Source of the DNA: Bacteroidales bacterium
Lineage (GTDB): Bacteria > Bacteroidota > Bacteroidia > Bacteroidales > JAGONC01
Direction: 5' to 3'
Assembly: GCA_035342335.1 (NCBI GenBank)
Contig: DAOQWY010000004.1
Span: 123,813-187,812, forward strand
Length of the DNA stretch: 64,000 bases
How positions within the stretch are numbered: position 1 is the first letter of the stretch; the number at the start of each line of letters is the position of its first letter. Both the position numbers and the translations under genes were made by a program. A model generated the notes under the pieces. That model searched no databases. It was given only the letters and a program-made list of their open reading frames with translations, and was not told the origin of the DNA. Shown piece by piece: positions 5,354 through 21,669 of the stretch.

Positions 5354-7465
5354 ATGTCCTTTTTCTCACGCCGAATCCCGGTAAAAACGCGCTTTTACGT
5401 TCCTATTGTGACCGGTATCATCATTATGGCGATGATCATCACCATCATCACCATCGCGATGGTACGGCGTAATATTTACCGTTCCCTGGAACGTAATCTG
5501 TCGACGGAGGTCCAGACGATCGTTAAAATGTTTGAGCGTGAAAGAGCACTGAAACTGGACAAGGTCCATCGTGACCTGAAAGTCGCGCACGAGTTGTTTT
5601 ACCAGGATTCACTGGTGATAGGACAAGAAACCTTCGAGGTTCCTGTCCTTAATCAGGTTTCCGGCACTCTGCATCAGGCCGGGCTTCAAAAGTGGTACCT
5701 GGCCGGCAAAGAACTTTATCAGAATTACGATTTCATCGATCGTGTTCATTTTCTTACCGATGCGACCGTTACACTTTTTCAGAAGATCGACAGCGGTTTT
5801 GTGAGGATCTCCACCAACGTGTTGAAGGAAGACAGCAGCCGGGCCATCGGGACATTTATTCCCCTGGACTCCAGCGTGGCAGACACGATCAACCGAATGA
5901 AAACTTTTTTCGGGCGTGCCTTTGTCGTGAATGACTGGTATATTACTGCTTATGAACCCATCCTGTCACAAGGGGAAATCGTGGGCATGCTTTATGTCGG
6001 GGATAAGGAAAAAGACCTGGACAAACTACGCGAAGTCCTTCGTGACCTTAAAATCGGGAAATCAGGATTTCCCTTTGTCATGGATGATCAGGGCACCCTG
6101 ATCATTCACCCGGCACTCCAGGGAGAAAAATACGGTGACGATGACCTGTTTGAAAAGATTGCCCGAATGAAGGAAGGACTGATCATCAGCAGGGGTGGTC
6201 CGGGACGGGAGAAGAACATGATCGCCTTTGATTACTATGAGGACTTTAGGTTTTACATTGGCGTAACCCTGCCCGTCAAGGAAGAAACCGCCCAGATCCT
6301 GAACAAGATCATTCTCAATTCCCTGATCCTTTCCCTTATCATCATCCTGGCCTTTTCCATCTTTGTTTATTATCTCACGATTGAAAATGTCAGAAAATTC
6401 CTGGGAGAACTTGAAGTTTCACAGGCTCAGCTTGACAGTACCAAAAGTGCACTGGCTCAGTCGGAACAGCATTTCAAGACCCTGTTCAACAACAGCAGCG
6501 ATGATATTTTTGTACTGGATATGGAGGGAAACTTCCTGGAGGTGAATCAGGTGGCCTGCGATAACCTTGGGTACAGCCCCGAAGAATTCAAACGGATGAA
6601 CTTCAGGGATATCAAGACACCGAAATTCCTGGATAAAGTTGACCGAAACCTGGAAACCATCCGTATGCTTGGCAAATACCGTTATGAGTCGGAGAATGTG
6701 GCAACAAGCGGCAGGGTGATCCCGGTGGAAATGAACAGCAGGATCATTGAATACAGGGGAAAGAAAGTCATCCTGACCATTGCCAGGGATATTACGGAGC
6801 GCAAGGAGGTTGAAGAAAAGATCCTGCGAACGATCATCCAGACCGAAGAGCGGGAGCGAAAACGGTTCGTTGCCGACCTGCACGACGGGCTGGCACCTAT
6901 TCTGTCGACCATCAAGCTTTATACGGATATCCTGAAGAAGGGCAACTTTAAAAAGATCGATAAAGGGGAAGCGATTGCCAACGTGGAAGAGCTGGTGGAC
7001 ATGGCCATCAAGTCAACACGGGAGATCTCCAACAACATCCGGCCTTCGCTGCTACAGGATTTTGGCCTGGCAGCTGCCATCCACGAATTCACCTCCTATG
7101 TCAAGGCAACGCACGCCGTTGACATTGAGGTGAATACACAGCAATACACGATCGATCACCGTGGAATCGAGGAAACCATCCTCTACCAATCCGTTCAGGA
7201 ACTGATCAACAACACCCTGAAGCATTCAAAAGCGGATCATATCAAGATCGACCTGAAGAGCTTCGACAATCAGATCATCCTGTACTACCGCGATAACGGG
7301 ATTGGTTTTGACCTCACTGCGGAACTGAAGAAAAATACCGGATACGGTCTCAACAATATCATCAATAAAATGAAAACCATCAAGGGATCCTGCGATATCA
7401 ACACCGAAGTGGGGAAAGGGATGTTTTTGATCGCCTCGGTAAGGATCCCGGAAAACAATGCCTGA
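5354..7465 (+). CDS. Membrane sensor histidine kinase (Cache-like periplasmic domain, PAS, HisKA_3, HATPase_c)
   Basis: 703 aa with two TM helices flanking a Cache-like domain (FVRISTNVL...NDWYITAYEPI). It has a PAS-like region, the NarX-type H-box FVADLHDGLAPIL, and an ATPase region DNGIGF...GYGLNNI. Confidence 0.9.
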   Translation: MSFFSRRIPVKTRFYVPIVTGIIIMAMIITIITIAMVRRNIYRSLERNLSTEVQTIVKMFERERALKLDKVHRDLKVAHELFYQDSLVIGQETFEVPVLNQVSGTLHQAGLQKWYLAGKELYQNYDFIDRVHFLTDATVTLFQKIDSGFVRISTNVLKEDSSRAIGTFIPLDSSVADTINRMKTFFGRAFVVNDWYITAYEPILSQGEIVGMLYVGDKEKDLDKLREVLRDLKIGKSGFPFVMDDQGTLIIHPALQGEKYGDDDLFEKIARMKEGLIISRGGPGREKNMIAFDYYEDFRFYIGVTLPVKEETAQILNKIILNSLILSLIIILAFSIFVYYLTIENVRKFLGELEVSQAQLDSTKSALAQSEQHFKTLFNNSSDDIFVLDMEGNFLEVNQVACDNLGYSPEEFKRMNFRDIKTPKFLDKVDRNLETIRMLGKYRYESENVATSGRVIPVEMNSRIIEYRGKKVILTIARDITERKEVEEKILRTIIQTEERERKRFVADLHDGLAPILSTIKLYTDILKKGNFKKIDKGEAIANVEELVDMAIKSTREISNNIRPSLLQDFGLAAAIHEFTSYVKATHAVDIEVNTQQYTIDHRGIEETILYQSVQELINNTLKHSKADHIKIDLKSFDNQIILYYRDNGIGFDLTAELKKNTGYGLNNIINKMKTIKGSCDINTEVGKGMFLIASVRIPENNA

Positions 7466-8105
7466 CATGGATATCATCAAAGTCATGATCGTGGATGATC
7501 ACATCATCTTTCGTAAAGGATTGCGGACCATACTCAATGAGATCGATGAACTGAAGGTGGTGGCGGAGGCTTCCAACGGCGTCGAACTGATGGATGCCCT
7601 GAAAAAAATCCAGACCGATGTTATCTTCATGGACATCCGGATGCCCATGATGGATGGGATCGAGGCCACTAAAAAAGTCACTGCGAAATACCCGGATGTC
7701 AAAATAATCGCACTGACCATGTTCGAGGAAGTGAGTTACTTCAACGAGATGATCGAGGCCGGAGCCGCTGGGTTCCTGCTGAAAAAGACCACAACGAAGG
7801 AACTCAAAACGGCCATTGATGCCGTTCTCCGCGACGATACCTACTTTTCTGAGGAATTTATCGCTTCTGCCAGCAAGTATCAGAGGATCAAGCCCAAAGG
7901 ACCCGATGTCAGGCTCTCCGACCGCGAGTTGGAGGTGCTTGAACTGATCTGCAAAGGAAACTCCAATGCAGAGATTGCCAAATTATTAGGGGTCAGCCAG
8001 CGAACCGTGGACGGACACCGTGCCCACCTCTTCGAAAAAACCGGTGCCAGAAATGCCCCCAACCTGGTGCTCTATGCGGTGAAACATGGACTGATCAGGA
8101 CCTGA
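7458..8105 (+). CDS. NarL/LuxR-family response regulator (REC plus GerE HTH)
   Basis: The REC domain has phosphoacceptor context DVIFMDIRMP. The HTH is LSDRELEVLELICKGNSNAEIAKLLGVSQRTVDGHR. The start overlaps the kinase stop by 8 nt. Confidence 0.93.
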   Translation: MPDMDIIKVMIVDDHIIFRKGLRTILNEIDELKVVAEASNGVELMDALKKIQTDVIFMDIRMPMMDGIEATKKVTAKYPDVKIIALTMFEEVSYFNEMIEAGAAGFLLKKTTTKELKTAIDAVLRDDTYFSEEFIASASKYQRIKPKGPDVRLSDRELEVLELICKGNSNAEIAKLLGVSQRTVDGHRAHLFEKTGARNAPNLVLYAVKHGLIRT

Positions 8106-8417
8106 TGGCACATCACAGACCCCGGAACGGATAAATCCCAGCCAGATTCCGGGTGAGTGACGGAGTTTTACACTGTCTCCGGACGAAAATCCAATGTGTA
8201 AAACACCTATACCTCAAAAAATAATCTTTTTTTTTAATTTTTTTCTGTTTGCCGGTGGGTCATTTCCAATGCTTTCAGTCGAAGGATCCCGATGGAGTTC
8301 AGTTCTGCTTAGTGACTTTAAGTATTTGAAAAACAATATTATAACTATTGAAATATAGGTGTTTCCACCTGTTTTCCGCGTGCACCTTCCACTCTTGCAG
8401 GGTCTGTGTTCCCGCTC

Positions 8418-8425
8418 TAATTTTG
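8418..8425 (+). promoter_or_regulatory. Candidate -7 box (TAATTTTG) for the hydrogenase island
   Basis: It matches TAnnTTTG and lies about 50 nt upstream of the ATG at 8475. A CTTG sits about 21 nt upstream as a weak -33. Confidence 0.35.
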
Positions 8426-8474: not shown

Positions 8475-8987
8475 ATGGAAGCACAGAAAATTTTAATTGT
8501 AGATGACGACGTTGATGTGATCAATGTCATCACGACTATCCTCGAAAATGAAGGATATGAAGTTATTTCAGCCTTTGATAAGGATGAGGGGCTGCAGCTG
8601 GCCCGTGATAAAAAGCCTGATCTGGCTATTCTTGATGTGATGATGACAACCCATTATGAGGGATTTGAGATGGCCAAGGAATTGAGTGAAGATCGCACCT
8701 TCCGGACGATGCCCGTATTGATGCAAACTTCCATCGATGTTCTGGTAACCACCAAGGAAAGTGTCAGGGAAATGGCCCGGGAGTTCAGAGCCGATCCTCA
8801 TTACAGTGAATTGCAGGTGATCCTGGTCCGGGATGTGGTTTCAGGTAACTGCGGGGTGGATTACCTTACGGAAGACGGACGCTCGATCTGGTTACCGGTG
8901 AACGGTTTTCTCAGAAAACCCGTGGATGCCCGGAAATTGCTCTACGAGATCAAAGCTCAGCTTGAGAAGCAGGCAGCACATTCTTAA
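8475..8987 (+). CDS. Stand-alone receiver (REC) protein with an insertion of about 50 aa and no output domain
   Basis: The sequence shows ILIVDDDVDV...KPDLAILDVMM...MQTS...FLRKP. It is a paralogue of 15245..15631. Confidence 0.85.
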   Translation: MEAQKILIVDDDVDVINVITTILENEGYEVISAFDKDEGLQLARDKKPDLAILDVMMTTHYEGFEMAKELSEDRTFRTMPVLMQTSIDVLVTTKESVREMAREFRADPHYSELQVILVRDVVSGNCGVDYLTEDGRSIWLPVNGFLRKPVDARKLLYEIKAQLEKQAAHS

Positions 8988-9041
8988 ACCTATCCAACTG
9001 CCACTGAGGGAATCCACGGAAACTTAATTAACCAGAGGATA

Positions 9042-9512
9042 ATGAAAACAGATGTTAAAGAGGTACTGGAAAATCATCAGCAGGGTGGTCGCGACAGTCT
9101 GATACCCATCTTGCAGGAAATTCAGGAAAGAGAGGGTTATCTTTCGGAAGAAGCTGTGGTTGCTGTTGGAAAGCATTTGCATATTCCTTCAAGCCGCATT
9201 TATGGGGTAGCCACCTTTTATAATCAGTTCAGGTTTCAGCCTACCGGCAAATACCATATCCAGGTCTGCCGTGGCACCGCCTGTCACGTGCTTGGATCGG
9301 CCACGGTGCTGGCGCACCTGGAAAAGTTGCTGAACATCAAAGCAGGGCAGACCACGCGCGACGGATTGTTCAGCATTGAGATCGTTGCATGCATTGGCGC
9401 CTGTGGACTGGCACCGGTCATCAACATCAGCGGCGAGTTTCATGCAAGGGTTGACGAGGCCAGGGTAGCCGCCATTATTGAGGAATACAGAAAAAGGGAG
9501 GAAACGTTATGA
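9042..9512 (+). CDS. hydC: [FeFe]-hydrogenase gamma subunit, NuoE-like [2Fe-2S] protein
   Basis: 156 aa with the NuoE-type Cys pattern VCRGTACHV...ACIGACGLAPV. Confidence 0.9.
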   Translation: MKTDVKEVLENHQQGGRDSLIPILQEIQEREGYLSEEAVVAVGKHLHIPSSRIYGVATFYNQFRFQPTGKYHIQVCRGTACHVLGSATVLAHLEKLLNIKAGQTTRDGLFSIEIVACIGACGLAPVINISGEFHARVDEARVAAIIEEYRKREETL

Positions 9513-11458
9513 TCACTGAAACGATGACTGACGTAAGGCAAATACTGATGGAAAAGCTCCTCAACGGGGAGACGGAACCACATTCTCACTCTTCGGGGGA
9601 TCTGCTTCGGGCATTGCGCCGGGAAACTCTTCTGAAACCGGTGATCTATATTGGATCCGGAACGTGCGGACTGGGTGCGGGCGCGGATAAGACACAGCAG
9701 GCTGTGAACCGTTACCTGGATGAAAAAGGTATTGATGCCGACATTGTTCAGGTTGGTTGTATTGGCATGTGTTCGGCTGAGCCGCTGCTGGATGTCCAGT
9801 TGCCGGGCAGGAACCGTCTTTGCTTCCAGAAGGTCACCGCGGATAAGGTTGTTAGTCTTCTGGATTCCGCTCTCAAGGGGGAGCCTTCCGAGGAAGACAT
9901 CCTGGGGCAGTTTCGCAACGGGCATACCAGCGCATGGGACAGGATTCCCTTTTTGGATGAGCACCCGTTTTTTGCCCGGCAGACACGGATTGTTTTGAAA
10001 AACTGTGGGATCATTGATCCTGTCAGCATCCGGGAATACATTGCCCATGGCGGTTATCAGAGCCTGCTCACGGTTTTGCAGACCTGCACGTCCCTTGATG
10101 TATGCAACAAGGTGGAGATCAGTGGTTTACGTGGACGTGGTGGTGGTGGGTTCCCTACCGGAAAGAAATGGAAGTTTGCCAACCAAACGGAAGCAGATCA
10201 GAAGTATCTGATCTGCAATGCAGATGAGGGAGATCCCGGAGCATTCATGGACAGAGCAGTGATCGAGGGAGACCCTTACCGTTTGATCGAGGGGATGACC
10301 ATTGCAGCCTATGGTATTGGCGCTTCCAAAGGATATGTGTACATCCGTGCCGAGTACCCGCTGGCCATCCAAAGGTTACGCATCGCGATGGATCAGGCCC
10401 GTAGCTATGGATTGCTGGGAAAAGACCTTGCAGGATCGGGATTCGATTTTGACATCACGGTCAAGATGGGGGCCGGTGCTTTTGTCTGCGGGGAAGAAAC
10501 AGCCCTGATGCACAGCATCGAGGGAAAGCGCGGGATGCCGCGTCCCAGGCCTCCTTTTCCGGCTGTCAGTGGCCTTTTTGGCAAACCTACTGTCATCAAT
10601 AATGTGGAAACCCTGGCCAATTTACCGGTCATCTTTGAAAAGGGTGAAGCCTGGTTCAGTTCAATGGGAACGGCCACCAGCAAGGGTACCAAGGTGTTTG
10701 CCCTGTCGGGCAAGATCAGTCGTACAGGTCTTGTGGAGATCCCGATGGGTACTCCGCTGCGGGATATCATCTTCACTATGGCGGGTGGCATACGCAACGG
10801 CAAGAAATTCAAGGCCGTGCAGATCGGAGGCCCCTCCGGCGGCTGCATAACCGAAGCAAACCTGGATATTCAGATCGACTATGAGTCGCTGATCAGGGCA
10901 GGGGCCATGATGGGAAGCGGAGGACTGGTGGTGATGGACGAGGATACCTGCATGGTGGATGTGGCCAAATTCTTCATGGACTTCATCCAGCGCGAAAGCT
11001 GTGGTAAATGTATTCCCTGCCGGGAAGGAACCCGAAGAATGCTGGAGATCCTGGAGAGCATCACTTCCAAACCAGTCAATACAGGAAATCAATCCCTGAC
11101 ACGCTTCAGGGGAATCATTCAACTGGAGAAACTGGCAAAAGTGATCAGGGAAACCTCTTTGTGCGGACTGGGCCAAACGGCTCCCAATCCGGTACTGAGC
11201 ACGCTCCGCTGGTTCAGGGACGAGTATGAATCGCATATCTACGAACGGAAGTGCCCGGCGGGTGTCTGTACGGATCTGAGAACGTTCCGCATCGATGTGG
11301 ACAAATGCACCGGATGTACGGTTTGCGCAAAGAAATGTCCTACCGGTGCCATCATCGGTGCCAGGAAAACAGCGCATTTCATTGTGGAGGAGAAATGCAT
11401 CGGTTGCGGCAGCTGTGAGGAAGCCTGTAAATTCGGTGCTATTTTTATAAGGGAGTAA
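9509..11458 (+). CDS. hydB: [FeFe]-hydrogenase beta subunit, NuoF-like flavoprotein
   Basis: 649 aa. The FMN/NADH site is GRGGGGFPTGKKW and the [4Fe-4S] motif is ESCGKCIPCREG. It has an N-terminal thioredoxin-like domain and C-terminal ferredoxin motifs CTGCTVCAKKCP and CIGCGSCEEAC. It has an ATGA overlap with hydC. Confidence 0.92.
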   Translation: MITETMTDVRQILMEKLLNGETEPHSHSSGDLLRALRRETLLKPVIYIGSGTCGLGAGADKTQQAVNRYLDEKGIDADIVQVGCIGMCSAEPLLDVQLPGRNRLCFQKVTADKVVSLLDSALKGEPSEEDILGQFRNGHTSAWDRIPFLDEHPFFARQTRIVLKNCGIIDPVSIREYIAHGGYQSLLTVLQTCTSLDVCNKVEISGLRGRGGGGFPTGKKWKFANQTEADQKYLICNADEGDPGAFMDRAVIEGDPYRLIEGMTIAAYGIGASKGYVYIRAEYPLAIQRLRIAMDQARSYGLLGKDLAGSGFDFDITVKMGAGAFVCGEETALMHSIEGKRGMPRPRPPFPAVSGLFGKPTVINNVETLANLPVIFEKGEAWFSSMGTATSKGTKVFALSGKISRTGLVEIPMGTPLRDIIFTMAGGIRNGKKFKAVQIGGPSGGCITEANLDIQIDYESLIRAGAMMGSGGLVVMDEDTCMVDVAKFFMDFIQRESCGKCIPCREGTRRMLEILESITSKPVNTGNQSLTRFRGIIQLEKLAKVIRETSLCGLGQTAPNPVLSTLRWFRDEYESHIYERKCPAGVCTDLRTFRIDVDKCTGCTVCAKKCPTGAIIGARKTAHFIVEEKCIGCGSCEEACKFGAIFIRE

Positions 11459-11483
11459 TGCTCCGATAAAAAACCAAGGAACT

Positions 11484-13208
11484 ATGGATTGTATGATAGA
11501 AGTCAATAACAAGAAGATTGAGGCAACGAAGGGAGAATTACTGATCGATGTCCTTTCAAGGAATGGCATCAGGGTCCCGACGCTCTGCCACATGAAAAAT
11601 TATCTGCCCTCCGGCTCATGCCGGATGTGTGTGGTGGAAAACCTGGCGAATGGGAAACTGATCACCTCCTGTTCCTATCCTGTGGAGGAGGGTATGAAAA
11701 TTCAGACCCACTCCCAGCGGGTGGTCGAATCCCGTAAGGTGATCGTGGAACTCCTGTTGTCAAATCATCCTGATGATTGCCTGTACTGTGTGCGTAACGG
11801 CAAGTGCACCCTGCAGGATCTGGCCGGTGAGCACAATGTGACTGAACGACGGATCAGCGGAAAGAAAAATGATTATCACAAGGATCTATCCAGTGCGAGT
11901 ATTGTCCGCGATCCGGACAAATGCATCCTTTGCGGCAGATGTGTCAGGGTTTGTGAAGAGGTGATGGATGTGTCGGCCATTGATTACATCAACCGCGGAA
12001 GCAGATCCGTCATCGGAACGGCTTTCAACAAGGGACTGAACGTCTCCAGTTGTGTGAACTGCGGGCAGTGCATCCTGGTATGTCCAACCGGAGCCCTTTC
12101 CGAAAGGCCCCATATCAATGAAGTGCAGATGGCTTTGAACGACCGGGATCAGATGGTGATCGTGCAGTACGCGCCTGCGGTAACGGTATCCATTGCCGAA
12201 GAGTTTGGTCTTGAACCGGGCGCCGACCTGAATGGCCTGCTGAATGCAGCCCTTCGGAAGATAGGTTTTGACCGGGTTTTTGATACATCGTTCTCAGCTG
12301 ATTTAACGATCATGGAAGAGTCGGCCGAGTTGATCCATCGCATCCAAAACAACGGTGTTCTGCCTATGATCACCAGTTGCTGTCCGGCCTGGATCAAGTT
12401 TGCGGAGGAATTTGCCCACGACATGCTCCCGAATCTTTCCACGTGCAAATCGCCACAGCAGATGCTGGGAGCCGTCATCAAGAGCTATATCAGCGAAAGG
12501 GAACACAAGGATCCGCACCAGATCTACTCGGTATCGGTGATGCCCTGTGTGGCCAAGAAATTTGAGGCGCAGCGGGAGAACATGACCCACCGGGGCATTA
12601 CGGATGTTGACGCGGTATTGTCGACCCGGGAACTCATCCAGCTGATCCGCCTGTACGGTATTGAAATTGATAAACTTGAACCCCAGACAGCGGATTCTCC
12701 GCTGGGTGTGCGAAGCTCTGCCGGAAAGCTTTTTGGCAACACGGGGGGAGTGATGGAAGCTGCCATTCGTACAGCCTACTTCAAACTTACCGGAAAAGAT
12801 CTGGTCAGTTTCAGGGTCCCTGAAATCAGGGGACTCAAAGGAAGGAAGGAAACGCGTATCCGGATCGGTGACCTGGAGCTGGGGGTGGCTGTGGTGAGTG
12901 GTTTAAAAAATGCCCGCCTGTTGCTGGATGAGATCCGCAACGGCAGAAACGACATTCATTTCATTGAAGTGATGGCCTGTCCGGGTGGGTGTGTGGCCGG
13001 AGGAGGGCAGCGCGTGGGATGCGGAGAATCAGATATTCTGGCCCGAATGCGGACGCTCTATGCCATCGACGATCAGGAAACGATAAAAATGTCGCACAAA
13101 AATCCCGAGGTTATTGAGCTGTACCAGGAATTCCTGGGAGAGCCTCTCGGGCACAAGAGTCATGAATTGCTTCATACAAGCTATATTGAACGTGATGTGA
13201 TGTTGTAG
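11484..13208 (+). CDS. hydA: Catalytic [FeFe]-hydrogenase, CpI-like domain architecture
   Basis: 574 aa. Cluster motifs are CHMKNYLPSGSCRMC, HPDDCLYCVRNGKC, CILCGRCVRVC and CVNCGQCILVCP. H-cluster signatures are ITSCCPAW, VMPCVAKKFE and EVMACPGGCVAGGGQ. Confidence 0.95.
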   Translation: MDCMIEVNNKKIEATKGELLIDVLSRNGIRVPTLCHMKNYLPSGSCRMCVVENLANGKLITSCSYPVEEGMKIQTHSQRVVESRKVIVELLLSNHPDDCLYCVRNGKCTLQDLAGEHNVTERRISGKKNDYHKDLSSASIVRDPDKCILCGRCVRVCEEVMDVSAIDYINRGSRSVIGTAFNKGLNVSSCVNCGQCILVCPTGALSERPHINEVQMALNDRDQMVIVQYAPAVTVSIAEEFGLEPGADLNGLLNAALRKIGFDRVFDTSFSADLTIMEESAELIHRIQNNGVLPMITSCCPAWIKFAEEFAHDMLPNLSTCKSPQQMLGAVIKSYISEREHKDPHQIYSVSVMPCVAKKFEAQRENMTHRGITDVDAVLSTRELIQLIRLYGIEIDKLEPQTADSPLGVRSSAGKLFGNTGGVMEAAIRTAYFKLTGKDLVSFRVPEIRGLKGRKETRIRIGDLELGVAVVSGLKNARLLLDEIRNGRNDIHFIEVMACPGGCVAGGGQRVGCGESDILARMRTLYAIDDQETIKMSHKNPEVIELYQEFLGEPLGHKSHELLHTSYIERDVML

Positions 13209-13240
13209 CAATGAAGGAAGTAACAGAAAACAGTTAACCT

Positions 13241-15235
13241 ATGCGTGGTTCGGTCAGGGATAAGTTGGTCTATACGGTCAAGGACAGATGCAGGGTGTGC
13301 TATACCTGTGTGAGAGAATGTCCTGTGAAGGCGATCAGGATCATCAACGGGCAGGCCGAGGTGATCAGTGAGCGCTGCATCGGTTGTGGGAATTGTGTGG
13401 TAGTGTGCAGCCAGCAGGCGAAAATGTATGTCACCCAGGTCGATTCGGTTCAGGAACTGCTTTCTTCTTCCGAAAAGGTCGTTGCCCTTGTTGCTCCCAG
13501 TTTTCCGGCTGAATTTACCGAATTCAGTGATTTCAGAGTTTTTGTGGGAAAACTTCGTGCACTGGGCTTTGACCACGTGATGGAAGTGGCTTTCGGGGCT
13601 GATCTTGTTGCAGGGGAATACGCCAGGTTGATCGACGAGGAGCACGTTCCCTCCATGATCAGTTCCGATTGCCCTGCCATCGTGTACTACATCCGTCACT
13701 ATCATCCTGAGCTGGTTCCGTACCTGGCCCCCGTGGTGTCTCCCATGGAAGCTGCGGCCCGCGTAGCGAAAAAGAAATATGGCGGGCACGTCAAGCTGGT
13801 CTTTATTGGTCCCTGTATCGCTAAGAAGGCCGAATCGGATGAAGTGGACGAAATCATCACGTTTGAGGAACTCCGGCAGCTTTTTACACAGCATGACTCT
13901 GATCTGCAGGATGTGGCTCCCTCCGACTTTGATCCTCCCCACGCGGGAAAAGGAGCCATTTTCCCATTGAGCAGAGGACTGCTGCAGTCGATGAATAAAA
14001 CGGATGACCTGTGCGATGGCAACATTCTCATCGCCGAAGGAAAACCCTTGTTTAAGGAAGCTATCCGCCAGTTCTCAAAAGAGTTGAAGGGAACCCATCA
14101 TCTTCAATTGCTGTGCTGTGAAGGGTGCATCATGGGACCGGGGATGTCGAGGGACGGGCAACGGTATATCCGCCGGAATTTGATCAGCCGTTATGCCAGC
14201 AAAAAAATGTCGGATAACCGGCATTCACAATGGGTGTTGGACATGGATGCATTTAAGGACATTCCACTGAGTAAATCCTTTAAACCAGCCGACAGGCGTA
14301 TTCCGCTCCCGAACCTGGAAGAAATTGACCAGGTGCTGCTCCGGATGGGCAAAAAGAGCCCGAGCGATCACCTCAACTGCGGGGCCTGTGGCTACGACAC
14401 CTGCGAAGAACACGCCATTGCCATCCTGGAAGGATTGGCGGAAACGGAAATGTGCCTGCCGTATACCATTGAAAAATTACACAAGTCGATTGAAGAACTG
14501 AATTTCTCCAACGAAAAGCTCGCATCAGCACAGCAGGCATTGAAACAATCCGAGAAAATGGCCACCATGGGACAACTGTCGGCAGGCATTGCCCACGAGC
14601 TCAACAATCCTCTTGGCGTGATCACCATGTACAGCAATATCCTGATCGATGAATCCAAACCCGGTGACCCGATCCGGAAGGACCTGGAACTGATCGCCGA
14701 ACAGGCAAGCCGGTGCAAGGGCATCGTCGGCGGATTGCTCAATTTTGCCCGCAAAAACCAGGTGAAACTGGAACTTACGAACATGAAAAGTTTCATCGAA
14801 AAGAGCTTCCAGTCCATCCTAAAAAACGATTCGGTATCCGTTTCGTTCGAATGCACAGCAAAGGATACGGAAGCCATGATCGACCAGGACCAGATGATGC
14901 AGGTTTTGACCAACCTGGAAAAGAACGCCGTGGAAGCCATGCCTGATGGCGGAAACCTGAAGATCATCCTGTCGGGCGATGATGAAAGCATTGAAATCAA
15001 GGTGGCTGATACAGGAACGGGCATCTCCCGGGAAAACATGGAAAAAATTTTCACGCCCTTCTTTACCACAAAACAAATTGGAAGAGGAACCGGACTGGGA
15101 TTGCCCCTGATCTATGGAATCGTCAAAATGCACCGTGGACAGATCAATGTCACATCCAACGCTGATCCGGCAGAGGGACCGACAGGGACCGCTTTTACAA
15201 TGAAACTGCCACGTGTAATAAACCAATTAAATTAA
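13241..15235 (+). CDS. Sensory-type [FeFe]-hydrogenase-like protein (HydS-like) fused to a histidine kinase
   Basis: 664 aa. It has two ferredoxin motifs (CRVCYTCVRECP, CIGCGNCVVVC). The H-domain is collinear with HydA but with variant signatures ISSDCPA, FIGPCIAKKAE and LLCCEGCIMGPG. It then has CGACGYDTC-x16-C (C380, C383, C388, C405), a coiled coil, the HisKA H-box GIAHELNNPLG, and HATPase motifs (NLEKNAVEAM, DTGTGI, GTGLGLPL). Confidence 0.88.
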   Translation: MRGSVRDKLVYTVKDRCRVCYTCVRECPVKAIRIINGQAEVISERCIGCGNCVVVCSQQAKMYVTQVDSVQELLSSSEKVVALVAPSFPAEFTEFSDFRVFVGKLRALGFDHVMEVAFGADLVAGEYARLIDEEHVPSMISSDCPAIVYYIRHYHPELVPYLAPVVSPMEAAARVAKKKYGGHVKLVFIGPCIAKKAESDEVDEIITFEELRQLFTQHDSDLQDVAPSDFDPPHAGKGAIFPLSRGLLQSMNKTDDLCDGNILIAEGKPLFKEAIRQFSKELKGTHHLQLLCCEGCIMGPGMSRDGQRYIRRNLISRYASKKMSDNRHSQWVLDMDAFKDIPLSKSFKPADRRIPLPNLEEIDQVLLRMGKKSPSDHLNCGACGYDTCEEHAIAILEGLAETEMCLPYTIEKLHKSIEELNFSNEKLASAQQALKQSEKMATMGQLSAGIAHELNNPLGVITMYSNILIDESKPGDPIRKDLELIAEQASRCKGIVGGLLNFARKNQVKLELTNMKSFIEKSFQSILKNDSVSVSFECTAKDTEAMIDQDQMMQVLTNLEKNAVEAMPDGGNLKIILSGDDESIEIKVADTGTGISRENMEKIFTPFFTTKQIGRGTGLGLPLIYGIVKMHRGQINVTSNADPAEGPTGTAFTMKLPRVINQLN

Positions 15236-15244
15236 CCAAATGCC

Positions 15245-15631
15245 ATGACAAAAAAAGTATTGATTGTGGATGATGACCCCGATTACCTGAGTCTGCTGAA
15301 ATTCCATGTGGAGGGTTTGGGATTTGAAACCATTACCGCTGAAAGCCAGAAGGAGGGAGAGGAGATCATGCAACAAATGAAACCCGATCTGGCTATCTTC
15401 GACCTGATGATGGAAAACAAAGACAGCGGATTTATTCTCAGCTATAAATTCAAGAAGAAATACCCTGATGTTCCTGTCATCATCGCTACCGCCGTAACGG
15501 CGGAAACAGGAATGATCTTCGGACTGGATACTGAAGAGGAAAAGAGCTGGATCAAAGCGGATCTCTACCTGGAGAAGGGCCTCAGACCCGATCAGCTCCA
15601 CCGTGAGATCAATAAATTATTGCAACTATAA
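15245..15631 (+). CDS. Stand-alone receiver (REC) protein
   Basis: 128 aa with VLIVDDDPDY...KPDLAIFDLMM...IATAV...YLEKG and no output domain. Confidence 0.88.
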   Translation: MTKKVLIVDDDPDYLSLLKFHVEGLGFETITAESQKEGEEIMQQMKPDLAIFDLMMENKDSGFILSYKFKKKYPDVPVIIATAVTAETGMIFGLDTEEEKSWIKADLYLEKGLRPDQLHREINKLLQL

Positions 15632-15649
15632 TCAGGAAAGCTGTTATAA

Positions 15650-16801
15650 ATGGAAAAACTTAAGGTACTTATCGTGGATGATGAACCCGGAATCCGATCA
15701 GGGATCAACAGGATCCTGCGAAACTATTCCGTAGGATTCCCCTTTATGGAAGAGGATTTCCAGTTCGAACTCATCGACGCAGAAACAGGTGAAAAAGCCA
15801 TTGAGATCATTGAGTCAAGCCCGGTCGACATCATTTTGCTGGACAATAAATTACCGGGTATCAACGGGATTGACGTTTTGGAGTACATCAGCAAACAGAA
15901 GTATGATGTTCAGGTCATGATGATCACTTCGTATGCCTCCCTGGACCTGGCCGTAAAGGCCACCAATATCGGGGCATATAATTTCATTCCCAAACCCTTC
16001 ACTCCTGATGAGTTAAAGACGGCCATGGAAGGGATCACCAAGCATCTTTACCTGAAACGAATGACACGTCAGCTTCACAAAGAGGGGAAAGAGATCCGGT
16101 TTCAGTTCCTTTCCGTGCTTTCACACGAGCTCAAGTCACCCATCAATGCCATCGAAGGTTACCTTCAGATCATGAAAGAAAAGCAGGTGGGTGACAAGAT
16201 TGATGATTATGGTGTCATGATCAGCAGATCCATCGAGCGTTTAAAAGGAATGCGGACCCTGATCATGGACCTGCTGGATCTCACCAGGCTTGAGTCAGGA
16301 AAGAAACAACGGGAATTAAAGAAGACCGATCTGTCGGAAATAGCCAAAATGGCGATCCATTCCATGGAACCGCTGGCCATCCAGAAAAACGTCAGCATTT
16401 ATTATGACAACGGAGAACCCTGTTATCTGAACGGTGACAGCGCCGAGATCGAGATCATCATGAACAACCTGCTGTCGAATGCCGTCAAATATAATAAAGA
16501 GGGCGGGCAGATCTATGTTCATATCAAAGGTTCCGACGATAAGGTAGTCATCAAGGTGGAAGATACAGGCATTGGGATGAGCGTGGAAGACCAGGAAAAG
16601 CTGTTCCGGGAATTTGTAAGGATCAAGAACGTCAAAACCAAGAACATCACAGGCAGCGGCCTGGGATTGTCCATCATAAAAAAACTTGTGGATCTGTACG
16701 CCGGTGACATAAAGGTTTCCAGCAAACCCGATGTGGGATCCACCTTTACCGTCACCCTGATGAAAAATGCCGATACAACGAATACCCTTCTGTTACAATG
16801 A
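15650..16801 (+). CDS. Hybrid receiver-histidine kinase (REC-HisKA-HATPase_c)
   Basis: 383 aa. The REC domain is VLIVDDEPGI...DIILLDNKLPGINGI, the H-box is LSVLSHELKSPINAI, and the ATPase region is EDTGIGM...GSGLGLSIIK. Confidence 0.9.
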   Translation: MEKLKVLIVDDEPGIRSGINRILRNYSVGFPFMEEDFQFELIDAETGEKAIEIIESSPVDIILLDNKLPGINGIDVLEYISKQKYDVQVMMITSYASLDLAVKATNIGAYNFIPKPFTPDELKTAMEGITKHLYLKRMTRQLHKEGKEIRFQFLSVLSHELKSPINAIEGYLQIMKEKQVGDKIDDYGVMISRSIERLKGMRTLIMDLLDLTRLESGKKQRELKKTDLSEIAKMAIHSMEPLAIQKNVSIYYDNGEPCYLNGDSAEIEIIMNNLLSNAVKYNKEGGQIYVHIKGSDDKVVIKVEDTGIGMSVEDQEKLFREFVRIKNVKTKNITGSGLGLSIIKKLVDLYAGDIKVSSKPDVGSTFTVTLMKNADTTNTLLLQ

Positions 16802-18228
16802 AATTCACACCCGAAAAATACCGTATTGAAGATGTGTCAGGAACGCCCTTCATCGATCCCGGGGAGATCTGGAATTATTTGGATCATGCGCAGCCGACCA
16901 TGGACCGGGTCAGGCAGATCATCGACCGGTCGCTGAGCAAGAACAGGTTGTCGCTGGAAGAGGTTGCCGTGCTGATCAAAGCCGATGACCCTGCGATGAT
17001 CAGTGCCATTAAGGAAGGTGCACGGAAACTGAAAGAGATAGTCTACGGACAGCGCATCGTGCTTTTTGCTCCGCTGTATGTGGGCAATTCGTGCATTAAT
17101 AACTGCAAATACTGTGGTTTCAAGGCATCCAACCGGCAGGCCGTCCGGCGAACCCTTACCCAGGAGGAGCTGATCGGGAATGTCAAAGCCCTGGAGGACC
17201 AGGGGCAGAAACGCCTCATCCTGGTTTATGGGGAACATCCTTCGTACACTCCGGAGTACATCGCCGGCACGGTTCGCACGGTGTATCAGGTGAAGAAAGG
17301 CAACGGGGAGATCCGAAGGGTGAACATCAACGCGGCGCCTATGGATGTGGAGGGATTCCGGACCATCAAACAGGCGGGCATCGGGACCTACCAGATCTTC
17401 CAGGAAACCTACCACCCGGAAGCCTACACCTGGTATCACCCCAGCGGCCGGAAGAAGGACTATGCTTACCGGCTCGTATCGCTCGACCGCGCCCAGGAGG
17501 CCGGTATCGACGATGTGGGCATAGGTGCGTTGCTGGGACTGTACGACTGGCGCTTTGAGGTAATGGCCCTTGTGAGGCATACCAGCCACCTGGAGGCCTG
17601 TTTCAATGTGGGCCCGCATACCATTTCTTTCCCAAGAGTGCAGGATGCATCGGATTACCAGATCGATGAGCGATACAAGGTTACGGATGAAGATTTTGTC
17701 AGGCTCATTGCCATCCTCCGCCTGGCTGTCCCCTATACGGGTATGATCCTGACAGCCCGGGAGCCTTCCTTTATCAGGGATGAAGTACTCCAGTTTGGTT
17801 GCTCCCAGATCGACGGCGGTACACGCCTGGAATTGGGTGCCTATGCGGAAGAGGATCGGAAAAAATTACAGAATTTAAACCTTGAACAATTCCTGATCAA
17901 TGATAATCGCTCACTGAATGAAGTGATCGATGAGCTGATCCATCAGGGATATATCCCATCCTTTTGCACGGCCTGCTACCGCAAAGGCCGTACTGGTGAG
18001 CATTTTATGGAATTTTCGGTACCGGGATTCATCAAGCGGTTCTGTACCCCGAATGCCCTGCTGACACTGGCTGAATACCTGTGTGACTACGCGCCTGCTG
18101 CCACACGGGAAAAAGGCTGGGCACTGATTGAAAAGAACCTGGGTGAGATGGAAAAGTCGGCCGGCAAGGATGCCCTGCTCGAACGCATGGAAAGAATCAA
18201 AAAGGGGGAAAGGGACCTGTATTTTTAA
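16798..18228 (+). CDS. hydG: [FeFe]-hydrogenase maturase HydG (radical SAM)
   Basis: 476 aa. It has the radical-SAM motif CINNCKYCGF and a C-terminal CTAC-x22-C motif. It has an ATGA overlap with the upstream kinase. Confidence 0.93.
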   Translation: MKFTPEKYRIEDVSGTPFIDPGEIWNYLDHAQPTMDRVRQIIDRSLSKNRLSLEEVAVLIKADDPAMISAIKEGARKLKEIVYGQRIVLFAPLYVGNSCINNCKYCGFKASNRQAVRRTLTQEELIGNVKALEDQGQKRLILVYGEHPSYTPEYIAGTVRTVYQVKKGNGEIRRVNINAAPMDVEGFRTIKQAGIGTYQIFQETYHPEAYTWYHPSGRKKDYAYRLVSLDRAQEAGIDDVGIGALLGLYDWRFEVMALVRHTSHLEACFNVGPHTISFPRVQDASDYQIDERYKVTDEDFVRLIAILRLAVPYTGMILTAREPSFIRDEVLQFGCSQIDGGTRLELGAYAEEDRKKLQNLNLEQFLINDNRSLNEVIDELIHQGYIPSFCTACYRKGRTGEHFMEFSVPGFIKRFCTPNALLTLAEYLCDYAPAATREKGWALIEKNLGEMEKSAGKDALLERMERIKKGERDLYF

Positions 18229-18337
18229 TAGTCGGCGGTCAGCAGCGGAGCGAAGCGACGTCCCGACGGAAGCCAGGATCAGCAGCCAGCAATTTGACAA
18301 TTTGACAATTTAACAATTTATCATATACGATTTTAAG
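18229..18337 (+). repeat. Upstream cassette copy E2 filling the hydG-hydF spacer
   Basis: It has blocks TAGTCGGCGG, GTCCCGACG, GGATCAGCAGCCAGCA, then CAATTTGACAATTTGACAATTTAACAATTTATCA (18290..18323). That 34-mer is the exact reverse complement of 63002..63035. The ATG follows 14 nt later. Confidence 0.8.
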
Positions 18338-19558
18338 ATGTCCAAAGGCATAGAGACCAAACCCCATATCGGGATCTTCGGACGTAGAAATACCGGAAAG
18401 AGCTCCTTTATCAACAGGCTGGTGAACCAGCAGGTTGCCATCGTCTCGGAACAGGCGGGAACCACCACCGATCCCGTCAGAAAGTCCATCGAGATCTTTG
18501 GGATTGGTCCGGCCATCGTCATCGACACGGCCGGTATCGACGATGTGGGTGAACTGGGAGCGATGAGGATCAACAGGACGATGGAAGTGCTCAGAACAGT
18601 TGATTGCGGCGTACTGCTGATCACCGGTAACGGGTTCGGCGAAGAGGAAGAAAGACTGATCCAGGGATTCAGGGAATGGGACATACCCTATCTGATTGTC
18701 CATAACAAAGAAGATCTGGAGCAGCTTCGCCCTGAAACGGAGAAAGCCCTGAGAGAAGGGTACGGATCGACGGTGATCAGGTTCAGTGCGGTTTTGAGCA
18801 ATGATCTGCAGGAAGTGACCGAAGCCCTGAAGGATATCATTCCTGACACGGCCTACCGGTACGCAACGTTGATCGGCGATATTGTTCACAAAGACGACTA
18901 CGTCGTTCTCATCACACCCATCGATCAGGAAGCGCCCGAGGGCCGAATGATCCTGCCGCAGATCATGGTGATCAGGGATGTGCTGGATAATGATGGCATC
19001 AACATCGTACTAAAGGAAAACCAGGTTACGTCATTCTTTCAGACATCGGGTATCCGACCATCACTGGTCATCACCGACAGCCAGGTATTTCACAAGGTCA
19101 AAGACCTGGTGCCGGAAACGGTTCCCCTGACCAGCTTCAGTATCGTTCTGGCACGCAGAAAGGGTAATTTTGAGCATTATCTCAAAGGTACACCCCATCT
19201 TGAAAACCTAAACAATGGCGACAGGGTACTGATCCTGGAATCGTGCACGCACCAGGTGAATTGCGACGACATTGGCCGGAATAAGCTGCCCCGCTGGATC
19301 CGCGAATTCACCGGAAAATCGGTTGAAGTGGATGTTGTGGCAGGACTTGATCCGGTTCCCGCAGATATCCGTGCCTACAGCCTGGTCATCCAGTGCGGAG
19401 GTTGCATGATCACCCGCAAACAGCTTCAAAACCGCCTGAAATTCGCCATCAATGCCGGGATACCGGTATCCAACTACGGACTCGCCATTGCCTATATGAA
19501 TGGCATATTTGAAAGGGTGACCGCTCCTTTTATGACAAGCGATGGATCCAATCAATGA
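18338..19558 (+). CDS. hydF: [FeFe]-hydrogenase maturase GTPase HydF
   Basis: 406 aa. The P-loop is GRRNTGKSS, DTAG is present, and the C-terminal cluster motifs are ESCTH...QCGGC. Confidence 0.93.
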   Translation: MSKGIETKPHIGIFGRRNTGKSSFINRLVNQQVAIVSEQAGTTTDPVRKSIEIFGIGPAIVIDTAGIDDVGELGAMRINRTMEVLRTVDCGVLLITGNGFGEEEERLIQGFREWDIPYLIVHNKEDLEQLRPETEKALREGYGSTVIRFSAVLSNDLQEVTEALKDIIPDTAYRYATLIGDIVHKDDYVVLITPIDQEAPEGRMILPQIMVIRDVLDNDGINIVLKENQVTSFFQTSGIRPSLVITDSQVFHKVKDLVPETVPLTSFSIVLARRKGNFEHYLKGTPHLENLNNGDRVLILESCTHQVNCDDIGRNKLPRWIREFTGKSVEVDVVAGLDPVPADIRAYSLVIQCGGCMITRKQLQNRLKFAINAGIPVSNYGLAIAYMNGIFERVTAPFMTSDGSNQ

Positions 19559-20624
19559 CATTCTGCTGCAGCCCAGCCTGGACCGTGCCCAGATCATCAG
19601 GTTGCTTTCGGCTGAATCAGACACTGAAAAAGAACAAATTTTTGCCAGGGCCTGTGAGGTCAAAAAGGCCCATATGGGGGAACAGATTTTCGTCAGGGGC
19701 CTGATCGAATTATCCAATGTCTGCAGAAAGAATTGCCTTTACTGCGGTGTCAGGAGAGGCATCAGGGATGTCCACAGGTACGACATCCCCGATGATGAGG
19801 TGAATGAAGTGGTGCGGCAGGCACTGGAGCAGGGGTACACTTCGCTGGTCATCCAGTCGGGGGAACGGACCGACAGGAGCTTCATCGACCGGATCGGGCG
19901 GATGCTGAAAAAAATACAGAGCATCTCCAACCAGGGGATGAGGGTCACGTTATCGTGCGGTGAACAAAGCCTGGAAACCTACCGTTGCTGGGCTGACAGC
20001 GGCGCTCACCGATATTTGCTGAGGATCGAGACCACCAACCGTGATCTTTACCGCAGGATCCATCCGGCCGACGACCTCCATCGTTACGACAACCGGATCA
20101 GAGCACTGCAACATCTGAAAGAAGCCGGTTATCTTGTCGGAACCGGCGTCATGATTGGCCTTCCCGGTCAATCCGTGGAGGATCTTGCCGATGATCTGCT
20201 GTTTCTGAGTGACATCCAGGTGGATATGGTTGGGATGGGTCCCTATATCGAGCATGAGAAGACACCTCTTTTTAAAGAAAAAGACCGGCTATGGTCAACG
20301 CAGGAACGGCTGGAGAAAAGTCTTTTAATGATCGCCGTATTGCGCCTTCTTCTGAAAGACATCAACATTGCATCAGCCACTGCATTGGATGTGCTGAGCC
20401 CGGAGGGAAGAACACTGGCGTTCCATGCAGGGGCCAGCGTGCTGATGCCCAACATCACCCCTGTCCGTTACCGTGAGGACTACCTGATCTACAAGGATAA
20501 GCCGGTACTCCTGGAAGCAACGGATCTCATTAAAAGGATCAGCTCAGGTTTGCCGTCAGGAATGAAAATAGACCTGGCGGCGTGGGGGGATCAAAATAAA
20601 GGATTGTCCTCTGAGAAAGCCTGA
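19542..20624 (+). CDS. hydE: [FeFe]-hydrogenase maturase HydE (radical SAM, BioB-like)
   Basis: 360 aa with CRKNCLYCGVRR. It overlaps hydF by 17 nt. Confidence 0.92.
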   Translation: MDPINDILLQPSLDRAQIIRLLSAESDTEKEQIFARACEVKKAHMGEQIFVRGLIELSNVCRKNCLYCGVRRGIRDVHRYDIPDDEVNEVVRQALEQGYTSLVIQSGERTDRSFIDRIGRMLKKIQSISNQGMRVTLSCGEQSLETYRCWADSGAHRYLLRIETTNRDLYRRIHPADDLHRYDNRIRALQHLKEAGYLVGTGVMIGLPGQSVEDLADDLLFLSDIQVDMVGMGPYIEHEKTPLFKEKDRLWSTQERLEKSLLMIAVLRLLLKDINIASATALDVLSPEGRTLAFHAGASVLMPNITPVRYREDYLIYKDKPVLLEATDLIKRISSGLPSGMKIDLAAWGDQNKGLSSEKA

Positions 20625-20907
20625 TCCCCAGACAGCCGGCTGCTCATACATGCGTATGCGCGGATATTTATTGTACCTTTGGCATCAAATACATTCCAAA
20701 TGAAAGGTATCGGTAACAGGCAAAACAAATCGCAGCCTTCCAGGGTCCGAAAGAATTCTTTTTCCGGCCAGATCAAAGGAAAGGGAAGCACATCCGCCTC
20801 CTTCACCCGTCAGGCGAAAAGAATGAATACAGGCACCAAAAGAATGCAAGGCTCGAAATAGTGCATTCAAGCAGCACAATTCCAATGGTTCTTAAAACTC
20901 CAATGCC

Positions 20908-21669
20908 ATGAAACAATGGTACGAATCCCTGTTTGAAAATTACGGACTGCAATACGACAGGGAGGTTTTCGTCCAGGGCACGCCGGGCGAATGTGATTTT
21001 ATCGAAAAGGAGATCCTGTATAATAAGAACGTACGGGTCCTGGACCTTGGCTGTGGTACGGGCCGGCATACCATTGAACTGGCACGGCGCGGTTACAGGG
21101 TGACAGGGATCGATCTGTCGGAGGCCCAACTGAAAAGGGCACGGGAAAAAGCAAAGAAAGCTGGCCTGGTCATTGATTTTCAGCAGCAGGACGCACGGGA
21201 ACTATCGTTCAGGAATGCGTTCGATCTGGTGATCATGCTCTGCGAAGGAGCATTTCCCCTGATGGAGACCGATGAGATGAATTTCCGGATCCTTCAGAAT
21301 GCGGCCTGTGCCCTGAAGGATGACGGCAAGCTGATCTTCACCACGTTGAATGGCTTTTTCCCCATTTTTCATTCCGTCAAGGATTTCCTGGATGCCGGCC
21401 GGGTGGAGGGCAATGCAGTTGAGGAGAACATCACCTTTGACCTGATGACCTTCCGCGATCGCAGCACTCTGCGGATGAAGGATGATTCAGGCCAAGAGAA
21501 GGAGTTAGACTGTAACCAGCGGTATTATGTGCCCACCGAGATCACTTGGTTGTTAAAGTCACTGAATTTTCGAAAAATTGAAATTTTTGGCGCGAAATTG
21601 GGTGCATTCAGCCGCTCTGATCAGCTGACAACGGAAGATTTTGAGATGCTGGTCATTGCAGAAAAATAA
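20908..21669 (+). CDS. Class I SAM-dependent methyltransferase
   Basis: 253 aa with motif I VLDLGCGTGRHT. Confidence 0.85.
   Translation: MKQWYESLFENYGLQYDREVFVQGTPGECDFIEKEILYNKNVRVLDLGCGTGRHTIELARRGYRVTGIDLSEAQLKRAREKAKKAGLVIDFQQQDARELSFRNAFDLVIMLCEGAFPLMETDEMNFRILQNAACALKDDGKLIFTTLNGFFPIFHSVKDFLDAGRVEGNAVEENITFDLMTFRDRSTLRMKDDSGQEKELDCNQRYYVPTEITWLLKSLNFRKIEIFGAKLGAFSRSDQLTTEDFEMLVIAEK

Follow-up and report, generated by a model that had tools for sequence, protein, structure and literature searches.

The window considered here is a 64,000-nucleotide (nt) stretch of the Bacteroidales contig DAOQWY010000004.1, in which a gene for a protein of 664 amino acids (aa), hydS-HK, lies between the hydrogenase genes hydCBA and the maturase genes hydGFE and is followed by genes for a single-domain receiver (REC128) and a receiver-kinase hybrid (the REC-kinase). 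The 664-aa protein, a cytoplasmic sensor kinase derived from a hydrogenase, appears by its sequence to be of the HydDB [FeFe] group C1 type and is a typical member of a widespread family. It probably serves as an H-cluster-based H2 or redox sensor kinase that feeds a kinase cascade. An earlier note on this DNA had proposed a group C-type sensory H-domain fused to an intact histidine kinase, and Pfam, motif and conservation analyses bear this out.

The protein opens with a Fer4 dicluster domain (Pfam, residues 11-56, E 2.8e-8) with two complete Cx2Cx2Cx3C ferredoxin motifs (Cys 17/20/23/27 and 46/49/52/56), both already recognised in the earlier note, whose cysteines are invariant in alignments of 17 and of 41 sequences. 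There follow an H-domain (Fe_hyd_lg_C, PF02906, residues 78-300, E 7.8e-45), an Fe-S domain (FeS, PF04060, residues 378-407, E 7.9e-9) with the exact motif Cx2Cx4Cx16C (C380, C383, C388, C405) and a kinase core of HisKA (443-506, E 8.4e-13) and HATPase_c (548-658, E 5e-23). The H-box AHELNNP begins at residue 451, making H452 the phospho-accepting histidine, and the run from the four-cysteine motif into the kinase is as had been described. The Fe_hyd_SSU tail of HydA was not found in the protein by Pfam. An AlphaFold model of the sensor has a mean predicted local distance difference test (pLDDT) score of 78, with most 10-residue blocks of the H-domain averaging 80-96. It matches the solved hydrogenases CbA5H, DdH, the HydA of HydABC (TkHydA) and CpI at Foldseek E-values of 1e-15 to 1e-18 over about 410-465 columns, and its C-terminal third matches ZraS, which is also the closest solved match of the kinase core (E 9e-35).

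The sensor and the adjacent HydA are 27% identical over 286 columns (BLASTP, E 8e-23). The block-by-block correspondence claimed for the two holds for VVAL-VAPSF/VIVQYAPAV, FGADL/FSADL, SSDCP/TSCCP and GPCIAKKAE/MPCVAKKFE but fails in its last block, where the L3 loop of the sensor is one residue shorter. H-domain residues were mapped in a 165-sequence alignment, in which HydA of the window coincides with CpI numbering at the motif positions used, and placement of the H-cluster ligands was judged by sequence alignment and fold match in place of a structural alignment. The other cysteines of the sensor are 144, 192 and 292/293/296; C144, C192, C293 and C296 align to C300, C355, C499 and C503 of CpI and HydA, and C292 is an extra, lineage-variable cysteine (49/76 orthologues). 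K195 corresponds to K358, and P86-S87 to P231-S232. These are second-sphere residues which anchor the CN ligands and contact only the [2Fe] subcluster.

Conservation was followed in 76 full-length, species-level orthologues of the sensor-kinase from at least 14 lineages. The claim that the four H-cluster ligand cysteines are kept stands, as they are invariant; K358, E361, P231 and a glycine at the M353 position are likewise found in 76 of 76, and S232 in 75. The four C-terminal Fe-S cysteines are also invariant, as are, in the kinase, H452, the N box (N558/N562) and the G1 box (D590/G592/G594). G616, G618 and G620 of the G2 box are kept in 75, and the kinase boxes as a whole (N, G1, F, G2) in 75-76. 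Every residue for holding an H-cluster is kept, binding of one is predicted, and the maturases HydG, HydF and HydE encoded alongside could assemble it.

As in sensory group C/D (HydS-type) proteins, the proton-relay Cys299, the proton-transfer residues, M353 and M497 are replaced, the changes being C299 to D143 (codon at window 13667-13669), M353 to G190, M497 to L291, E279 to Y127, S319 to A163 and E282 to L130. Asp143 is in part an exception to the loss of the proton relay, Asp being able to relay protons; Cys-to-Asp variants reportedly keep activity, in engineered hydrogenases Asp can serve as a proton relay, and a structure of CpI C299D is deposited (6glz). The position is Asp in 26 of the 31 Bacteroidota orthologues and T, S, A or P in other lineages. 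Because Asp can relay protons, the Bacteroidota clade may retain more turnover than other sensors.

The strongest argument from sequence that the kinase reads the state of the cluster domain is the linker between them. Directly after C405, the last Fe-S ligand, come L406 and an invariant P407, where a helix starts. The heptad 'd' positions (406, 413, 420, 427, 434, 441 and 448) form a leucine stripe that is about 100% conserved and essentially 100% hydrophobic, and the 'a' positions read I, I, N, Q, E, Q, ending on H452. In the AlphaFold model, helices span 406-433 and 441-471. The offset from Cys405 to His452 is 47 in 62 of the 76 orthologues and 40 in the other 14, and the residues missing from the shorter ones are exactly the heptad 417-423; a rigid coiled-coil signalling helix predicts such change of length by whole heptads only. 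No PAS domain stands between the Fe-S domain and the kinase in the window sensor, and a PAS insertion occurs in a minority of relatives (P0124). The conservation of ligands and second sphere, the whole-heptad linker and a gene order retained across phyla together indicate strong purifying selection on what would be a working metallocentre coupled to a kinase.

Homologues were sought with residues 1-430 (window 13241-14530) as query against 1.84 billion cluster representatives, and 1026 matched at E <= 1e-30; a kinase is fused in 45 of the best 150 by homology, and in about the same number by domain typing. Elsewhere the input module (2xFer4, H-domain, Cx2Cx4Cx16C) is fused to GGDEF, to MCP, to sigma-54 AAA+ activators with a helix-turn-helix (HTH) domain, with or without PAS, to PAS-kinase and to kinase-REC (representatives P0141, P0171, P0158, P0145, P0181, P0124 and P0143). 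As outputs are swapped on a constant input, the module behaves as a signalling input domain. The group C [FeFe] subtypes named in HydDB are kinase-, chemotaxis- and phosphatase-linked only.

With one genome scanned for each GTDB species, at least 596 sensor-kinase loci were found. The synteny counts refer to the best 80 of these, non-redundant, and the denominator 74 is the loci with enough flanking sequence. The 80 loci come from Bacteroidota, Ignavibacteria, Planctomycetota, Myxococcota, Hydrogenedentota, Spirochaetota, Acidobacteriota, Thermoleophilia (Actinomycetota), Elusimicrobiota, Verrucomicrobiota, Fibrobacterota, Desulfobacterota, Bdellovibrionota and KSB1. The neighbourhood check proposed in the earlier note came out in favour of linkage to hydrogenase genes, hydA being the gene immediately before that of the sensor-kinase in 64 of 74 loci. 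Of 69 loci, 63 have a REC-HisKA-HATPase gene no more than 2.6 kb downstream. The order is REC then REC-kinase in 49 of these 69, the REC-kinase comes directly after the sensor-kinase in 11, and a maturase gene lies within the locus in 34 of 80.

Receivers and REC-kinases were compared in 50 cassettes. In REC128 the acceptor residues (DD, D53, K111) are kept in all 50, with T or S at position 82, and the DD, D, T/S and K residues are present in all receivers of the window. The REC-kinase has the domains Response_reg (6-126), HisKA (152-217) and HATPase_c (262-371; Pfam) and no other sensor domain, and its D65, K115 and H159 are found in 50 of 50 cassettes, with an Asp-to-His offset of 94 in 36. 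It is thus of the Rec-DHp-CA (receiver, dimerization and histidine phosphotransfer, catalytic) architecture of the Rec-controlled kinase LvrB, which it also resembles in size (383 aa against 382 aa; PDB 8vc9). In the LvrB system, as here, an upstream kinase is encoded adjacent and the Asp and His are conserved. The two have no specific sequence kinship beyond their shared domains: the NCBIfam LvrB model matches the kinase core of the sensor and not preferentially the REC-kinase, the Asp-to-His offset is 94 in the window REC-kinase and 105 in LvrB, and no LvrC-like REC-anti-sigma protein was seen in the window. In Leptospira, phosphorylation of the LvrB Rec domain by the upstream kinase frees the catalytic domains and turns on autophosphorylation (PMC13269768). 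By analogy the sensor-kinase would take the role of LvrA.

The earlier note had described a multi-step phosphorelay. No match to a histidine phosphotransfer (Hpt) family was found in any scanned protein with Pfam or NCBIfam, so this description is not supported; the second histidine is the H-box of the full kinase at 15650-16801. Since there is no Hpt and the architecture of the REC-kinase is that of LvrB, a kinase-to-kinase cascade is more likely than a phosphorelay. A relative in which sensor, kinase and REC form one chain (P0143) has a REC that scores 121 bits on the REC128-type profile and 21 on that of the REC-kinase receiver, which hints that REC128 is a direct substrate of the sensor-kinase.

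In the proposed mechanism, binding and oxidation of H2 at the H-cluster would alter the redox state of the cluster chain, and this change would pass via the coiled coil and shift the balance of autokinase and phosphatase activities. From the sensor-kinase, phosphoryl groups would then pass both to REC128 and to the receiver domain of the LvrB-like Rec-controlled kinase, which would in turn phosphorylate a further receiver, either REC170 (the single-domain receiver encoded first in the operon) or a lineage-specific output. In this way the partial pressure of H2 would feed back on the NADH/ferredoxin-linked HydABC.

The 664-aa protein has a place in existing classifications. HydDB lists [FeFe] group C1 as 'histidine kinase-linked (putative)' with its role undetermined (Sondergaard, Pedersen & Greening 2016, PMC5037454), in line with the earlier note on a kinase-linked subgroup catalogued without biochemistry, and a 2026 preprint still calls C1 'putatively sensory'. 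The window protein shares with C1 a sensory-type H-domain and its association with a histidine kinase, here within the same polypeptide, and differs from it in nothing essential, the class being defined by sequence clustering alone. In Petrimonas mucosa, also of the Bacteroidales, a C1 protein is found beside a bifurcating group A3 or Hnd-type hydrogenase (PMC7768429), and such a linkage is also on record for Hydrogenedentota (PMC11406978). C1 proteins typed by HydDB in Hydrogenedentota carry HATPase_c (PMC11406978), and two Hydrogenedentota orthologues (L037, L062) are 49-51% identical to the window protein. Literature searches found no description of the REC and Rec-controlled-kinase cassette across phyla, of the heptad-locked linker or of the Bacteroidota Asp at the proton-relay position, and the cassette is not mentioned in the paper on Melioribacter roseus; these features are refinements of a known class and not a new category.

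The nearest characterised relatives are HydS of Thermotoga maritima (TmHydS; group C, M2f) and of Thermoanaerobacter mathranii (TamHydS; group D, M2e), which have the same input module of 2x[4Fe-4S], H-domain and Cx2Cx4Cx16C. Both bind an H-cluster with low turnover and have the four-cysteine motif, which is a stated hallmark of HydS-type enzymes (PMC8163306), in agreement with the earlier note. In the window protein this motif likewise follows the H-domain, with the 2x[4Fe-4S] domain at the N-terminus. Like the window protein, TmHydS and TamHydS have lost the proton-relay Cys and the proton pathway, have M353 and M497 replaced and adjoin a trimeric bifurcating hydrogenase; the window sensor has Gly at M353 as in TmHydS and Leu at M497 as in TamHydS. 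They differ from it in that TmHydS continues into PAS and TamHydS has no fused signalling domain, where the window protein goes from Fe-S domain to coiled coil to kinase, and in lacking the Asp that the window clade has at the C299 position. TmHydS and TamHydS have been characterised spectroscopically, and the window family is known from sequence. The [NiFe] group 2b regulatory systems (HoxBC-HoxJ-HoxA and HupUV-HupT-HupR) are unrelated in metallocentre and fold. Their sensor and kinase are separate and joined via a PAS-like domain, unlike the single polypeptide here, and their output is an NtrC-type DNA-binding regulator, whereas the conserved partners in the window have no DNA-binding domain.

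The main rival is a sensor that is not specific for H2 but responds to redox, the ferredoxin pool or a gas (CO/O2), its cluster chain being reduced by ferredoxin or HydABC, with the H-domain no more than a scaffold that is redox-active or binds a ligand, and with the kinase reporting redox poise. HydS-type enzymes have very low catalytic rates and behave unusually with CO (PMC8163306), which would suit such a sensor, as would the N-terminal 2x[4Fe-4S] ferredoxin domain, a typical point of electron entry, the missing proton-transfer pathway for turnover and the NADH/ferredoxin-linked partner enzyme. It is nevertheless unlikely, as the contacts to the [2Fe] subcluster alone (K358, P231, S232) and the equivalent of the bridging Cys503 are invariant or nearly so over the lineages sampled, and a pure ferredoxin-type sensor would have no need of them; the frequent presence of maturase genes in the locus also argues against it.

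It is distinctly improbable that the protein is a working hydrogenase or an extra subunit of HydABC whose fused kinase reports turnover or complex assembly and not ambient H2. The position of the gene directly after hydA fits this view, as do the Asp for Cys299 in most Bacteroidota orthologues and the deposited CpI C299D structure. Group C3 proteins have moreover been treated as the 'T subunit' of Bfu complexes in Hydrogenedentota (PMC11406978). Against it stand Tyr, Ala and Leu at the equivalents of E279, S319 and E282, the T, S, A or P at the C299 position outside Bacteroidota, the absence of the Fe_hyd_SSU tail of HydA, and the fusions to GGDEF, MCP and sigma-54 outputs, which are the behaviour of an input domain. 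A degenerate relic of an H-domain without the [2Fe] subcluster, with the kinase otherwise regulated and the hyd linkage historical, would account for the unmatched strict P1-P3 signatures, the change of TSCCPxW to SSDCPAI, the missing GGGQP tail and the conclusion of one published survey of C1 proteins (PMC11406978), but is highly improbable given ligands and second-sphere residues conserved across very large evolutionary distances, a linker confined to whole heptads and synteny kept across phyla.

A number of points weigh against an H-cluster-based sensor kinase that feeds a cascade. The survey just cited, of Hydrogenedentota, reported C1 proteins without the P1-P3 signature motifs. The ligands are all present in the 76 orthologues, and the statement is therefore, on these alignments, a matter of over-strict signatures, with the ligands there and the flanking signature residues different. 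The L3 spacing of the sensor is CxGC (Cx2C) and not the CPGGC (Cx3C) of HydA. Model confidence is low at the junction of coiled coil and DHp (residues 427-449), as expected from a monomer prediction of a dimeric kinase, and there is no solved group C structure among the PDB matches listed for the sensor. Literature searches found no biochemistry on kinase-linked [FeFe] sensors of group C1, and the order proposed for phosphotransfer is drawn from a single fusion protein and from analogy. Neither a DNA-binding nor an enzymatic output domain belongs to the conserved core. A Cache-type sensor kinase and REC-GerE regulator pair, encoded upstream, accompanies the cluster in the window and in 5 of the 80 loci, all close Bacteroidales, and the cognate kinase of REC-GerE is evidently the HisKA_3 Cache kinase and not the sensor-kinase. 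The two genes overlap by 8 nt, and this, with the HisKA_3/NarL-type pairing, makes them a self-contained two-component system with no obvious substrate for the sensor-kinase.

It had been claimed that none of the receivers has a DNA-binding output and that the output route was unknown. The first part holds, as no HTH domain was found by Pfam or NCBIfam in the receivers of the window operon; the second can be narrowed to the Cache/PAS/HisKA_3 kinase with REC-GerE in the closest Bacteroidales, and to NtrC-type or other receivers in other phyla. A bolder and rather doubtful possibility is that the sensor-kinase, REC128, the Rec-controlled kinase and a REC170-type receiver form a cross-phylum H2-responsive cascade without a transcription-factor endpoint, the receivers acting directly on HydABC or its electron partners and gating electron bifurcation post-translationally in response to H2, with lineage-specific regulators, the Cache-kinase/LuxR pair among them, in charge of transcription.

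Whether and how [FeFe] 'sensory hydrogenases' sense H2 is still unproven, and TmHydS and TamHydS have no measurable signalling output. In the family described here, autophosphorylation of H452 is a direct readout, connected to the metallocentre through a rigid, register-locked helix, and the family is therefore the simplest system for testing H2 sensing. It is found in hundreds of species of many anaerobic phyla beside the NADH/ferredoxin hydrogenase which sets the fermentation balance, and its function matters for H2 homeostasis in digesters, sediments and guts. The window holds a typical member, and these points apply to the family as a whole.

The operon consists of ten closely packed genes on the + strand from 8475 to 20624 (Table 1). 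The open reading frames, including 13241..15235 for the 664-aa protein, lie where the earlier note had placed them. Its two junctions were also correct, namely the 9-nt gap between the sensor-kinase gene (TAA at 15233-15235) and the REC gene (ATG at 15245), and the ATGA at 16798-16801 by which the REC-kinase stop overlaps hydG. HydA of the window scores above the curated cutoff of NF040763 ('NADH-dependent [FeFe] hydrogenase, group A6') and has the canonical motifs TSCCPAW, MPCVAKKFE and MACPGGCVAGGGQ as well as an N-terminal 2Fe-2S/NuoG-like domain (Pfam, NCBIfam). Together with a NuoE-like HydC and a NuoF-like HydB with C-terminal ferredoxin motifs it has the make-up of an NADH/ferredoxin-linked, bifurcating-type group A enzyme, as had been proposed for this neighbour, and hydCBA is directly upstream of the sensor-kinase gene, as is found for HydS-type proteins. 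A horizontally inserted island was ruled out by the even guanine-cytosine content across the region and the same gene order across phyla. The window is identical to a 338-kb contig in JGI metagenome 3300010356, and public Bacteroidales metagenome-assembled genomes (MAGs) hold a protein 100% identical to the sensor-kinase. With Rfam at gathering thresholds, a single tRNA was the only RNA family found, distant from the locus.

Table 1. Features of the hyd locus, in window coordinates, with the evidence for each.
Feature	Position	Strand	Evidence
Cache_3-Cache_2/PAS/HisKA_3 sensor kinase, candidate second input	5354..7465	+	Pfam
REC-GerE (NarL/LuxR-type) response regulator, candidate DNA-binding regulator of hyd operon	7458..8105	+	Pfam
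Palindrome AGGTGTTTCCACCT, tentative operator	8357..8370	.	Conserved between window and L007; similar element in L006
TAATTTTG, match to Bacteroidetes -7 consensus, tentative promoter	8418..8425	+	50 nt before REC170 start; TACTTTTG in L007
REC170, single-domain receiver, 170 aa, opens operon	8475..8987	+	Pfam, paralogy to REC128
hydC, NuoE-like 2Fe-2S subunit	9042..9512	+	PF01257 E 2.4e-50; NCBIfam NuoE family
hydB, NuoF-like flavoprotein, two C-terminal 4Fe-4S motifs	9509..11458	+	Complex1_51K, NADH_4Fe-4S, Fer4 x2; NCBIfam nuoF_fam E 1.3e-146
hydA, catalytic group A hydrogenase	11484..13208	+	NCBIfam NF040763, 783 bits vs cutoff 765
hydS-HK, 664-aa sensory [FeFe]-hydrogenase homologue + histidine kinase	13241..15235	+	Pfam, orthologue conservation
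N-terminal 2x[4Fe-4S] ferredoxin domain	13241..13420	+	Pfam Fer4 dicluster, Cys motifs
H-domain	13472..14140	+	PF02906, alignments, AlphaFold fold match
C-terminal Fe-S domain	14372..14461	+	PF04060, exact Cx2Cx4Cx16C
Predicted signalling coiled coil, L406 to H452	14456..14596	+	Leucine stripe, offset conservation
Kinase core, HisKA + HATPase_c	14567..15214	+	Pfam, N/G1/F/G2 boxes
REC128, single-domain receiver, 128 aa	15245..15631	+	Pfam; DD 9-10, D53, T82, K111
REC-HisKA-HATPase, 383 aa, LvrB-like architecture	15650..16801	+	Pfam; D65, K115, H159
hydG maturase	16798..18228	+	TIGR03955 E 1.3e-152
hydF maturase	18338..19558	+	TIGR03918 E 1.7e-143
hydE maturase	19542..20624	+	TIGR03956 E 8.9e-88

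REC170 and REC128 are paralogues (34% identity, E 6e-16), which agrees with the earlier note's second REC-only paralogue at 8475. Between beta-4 and beta-5, REC170 has about 45 extra residues (about residues 87-132; window 8733-8870), on the face normally used by receivers for output. Its Bacteroidota orthologues have 147-173 aa and the Ignavibacteria equivalent 121-130 aa. In 15 of the 80 loci the gene immediately before a hydC encodes such a receiver, as it also does in the second hydrogenase cluster found in Ignavibacteria.

A GAPDH gene also lies upstream of the operon, with the Cache kinase and REC-GerE genes. The Cache-kinase/REC-GerE pair precedes the cluster in the window, L005/L009, L007 and L015 but comes after hydE in L004; that it accompanies the cluster at different positions in close relatives argues for a linkage that is functional and not accidental, and transcription of the operon in this clade is probably also set by this pair. 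In the region of about 370 nt (8106-8474) between the LuxR gene and the operon there is a hairpin 3' of that gene (8162-8207, 12-nt stem) with T tracts after it. The elements AGGTGTTTCCACCT and TAATTTTG are among the few conserved blocks shared with the intergenic region of the 85%-related L007, which suggests an operator-promoter arrangement of the hyd operon that is not statistically secured. For the Bacteroidetes -7 motif TAnnTTTG the window shows no enrichment, with 33 matches where 28 are expected, and the site at 8418 is kept solely because it is conserved in L007. With one mismatch, the operator candidate GGTGWWWWCACC has 8 matches against 2.1 expected, of which only one is at the locus, and it stays tentative. 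A scan of 4000-23000 for sigma-70 promoters and intrinsic terminators, which is unsuited to Bacteroidota, gave counts at or below shuffled expectation.

In other phyla, genes close by encode NtrC-type sigma-54 activators, a REC-Ser/Thr kinase and a fusion of REC with a formate/nitrite transporter. The last, of unusual architecture, is found in a Myxococcota MAG (L045:8664-9956; PF01226, E 2.5e-75), its gene being directly upstream of the sensor-kinase gene. In Ignavibacteria and related loci (L073-L080, L083) the cassette lies between two different hydrogenase operons, hydCBA with a 660-aa HydB and, downstream, REC-hydC'B'A' with a 400-aa HydB and a HydA of 630-655 aa, followed by a HATPase protein. 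This position between two operons suggests that one sensor could arbitrate between two enzymes. Many Bacteroidales also have a second sensory-type H-domain protein of about 620-630 aa, with an Fe-S motif and no kinase or other recognised output, which is accompanied by an 84-aa HydC-like open reading frame. Both are divergent from hydC, and the pair, absent from the window, is found at L030:3055-4920, with equivalents in L013, L014, L016, L018, L022, L024-L026, L029, L031, L044 and L048.

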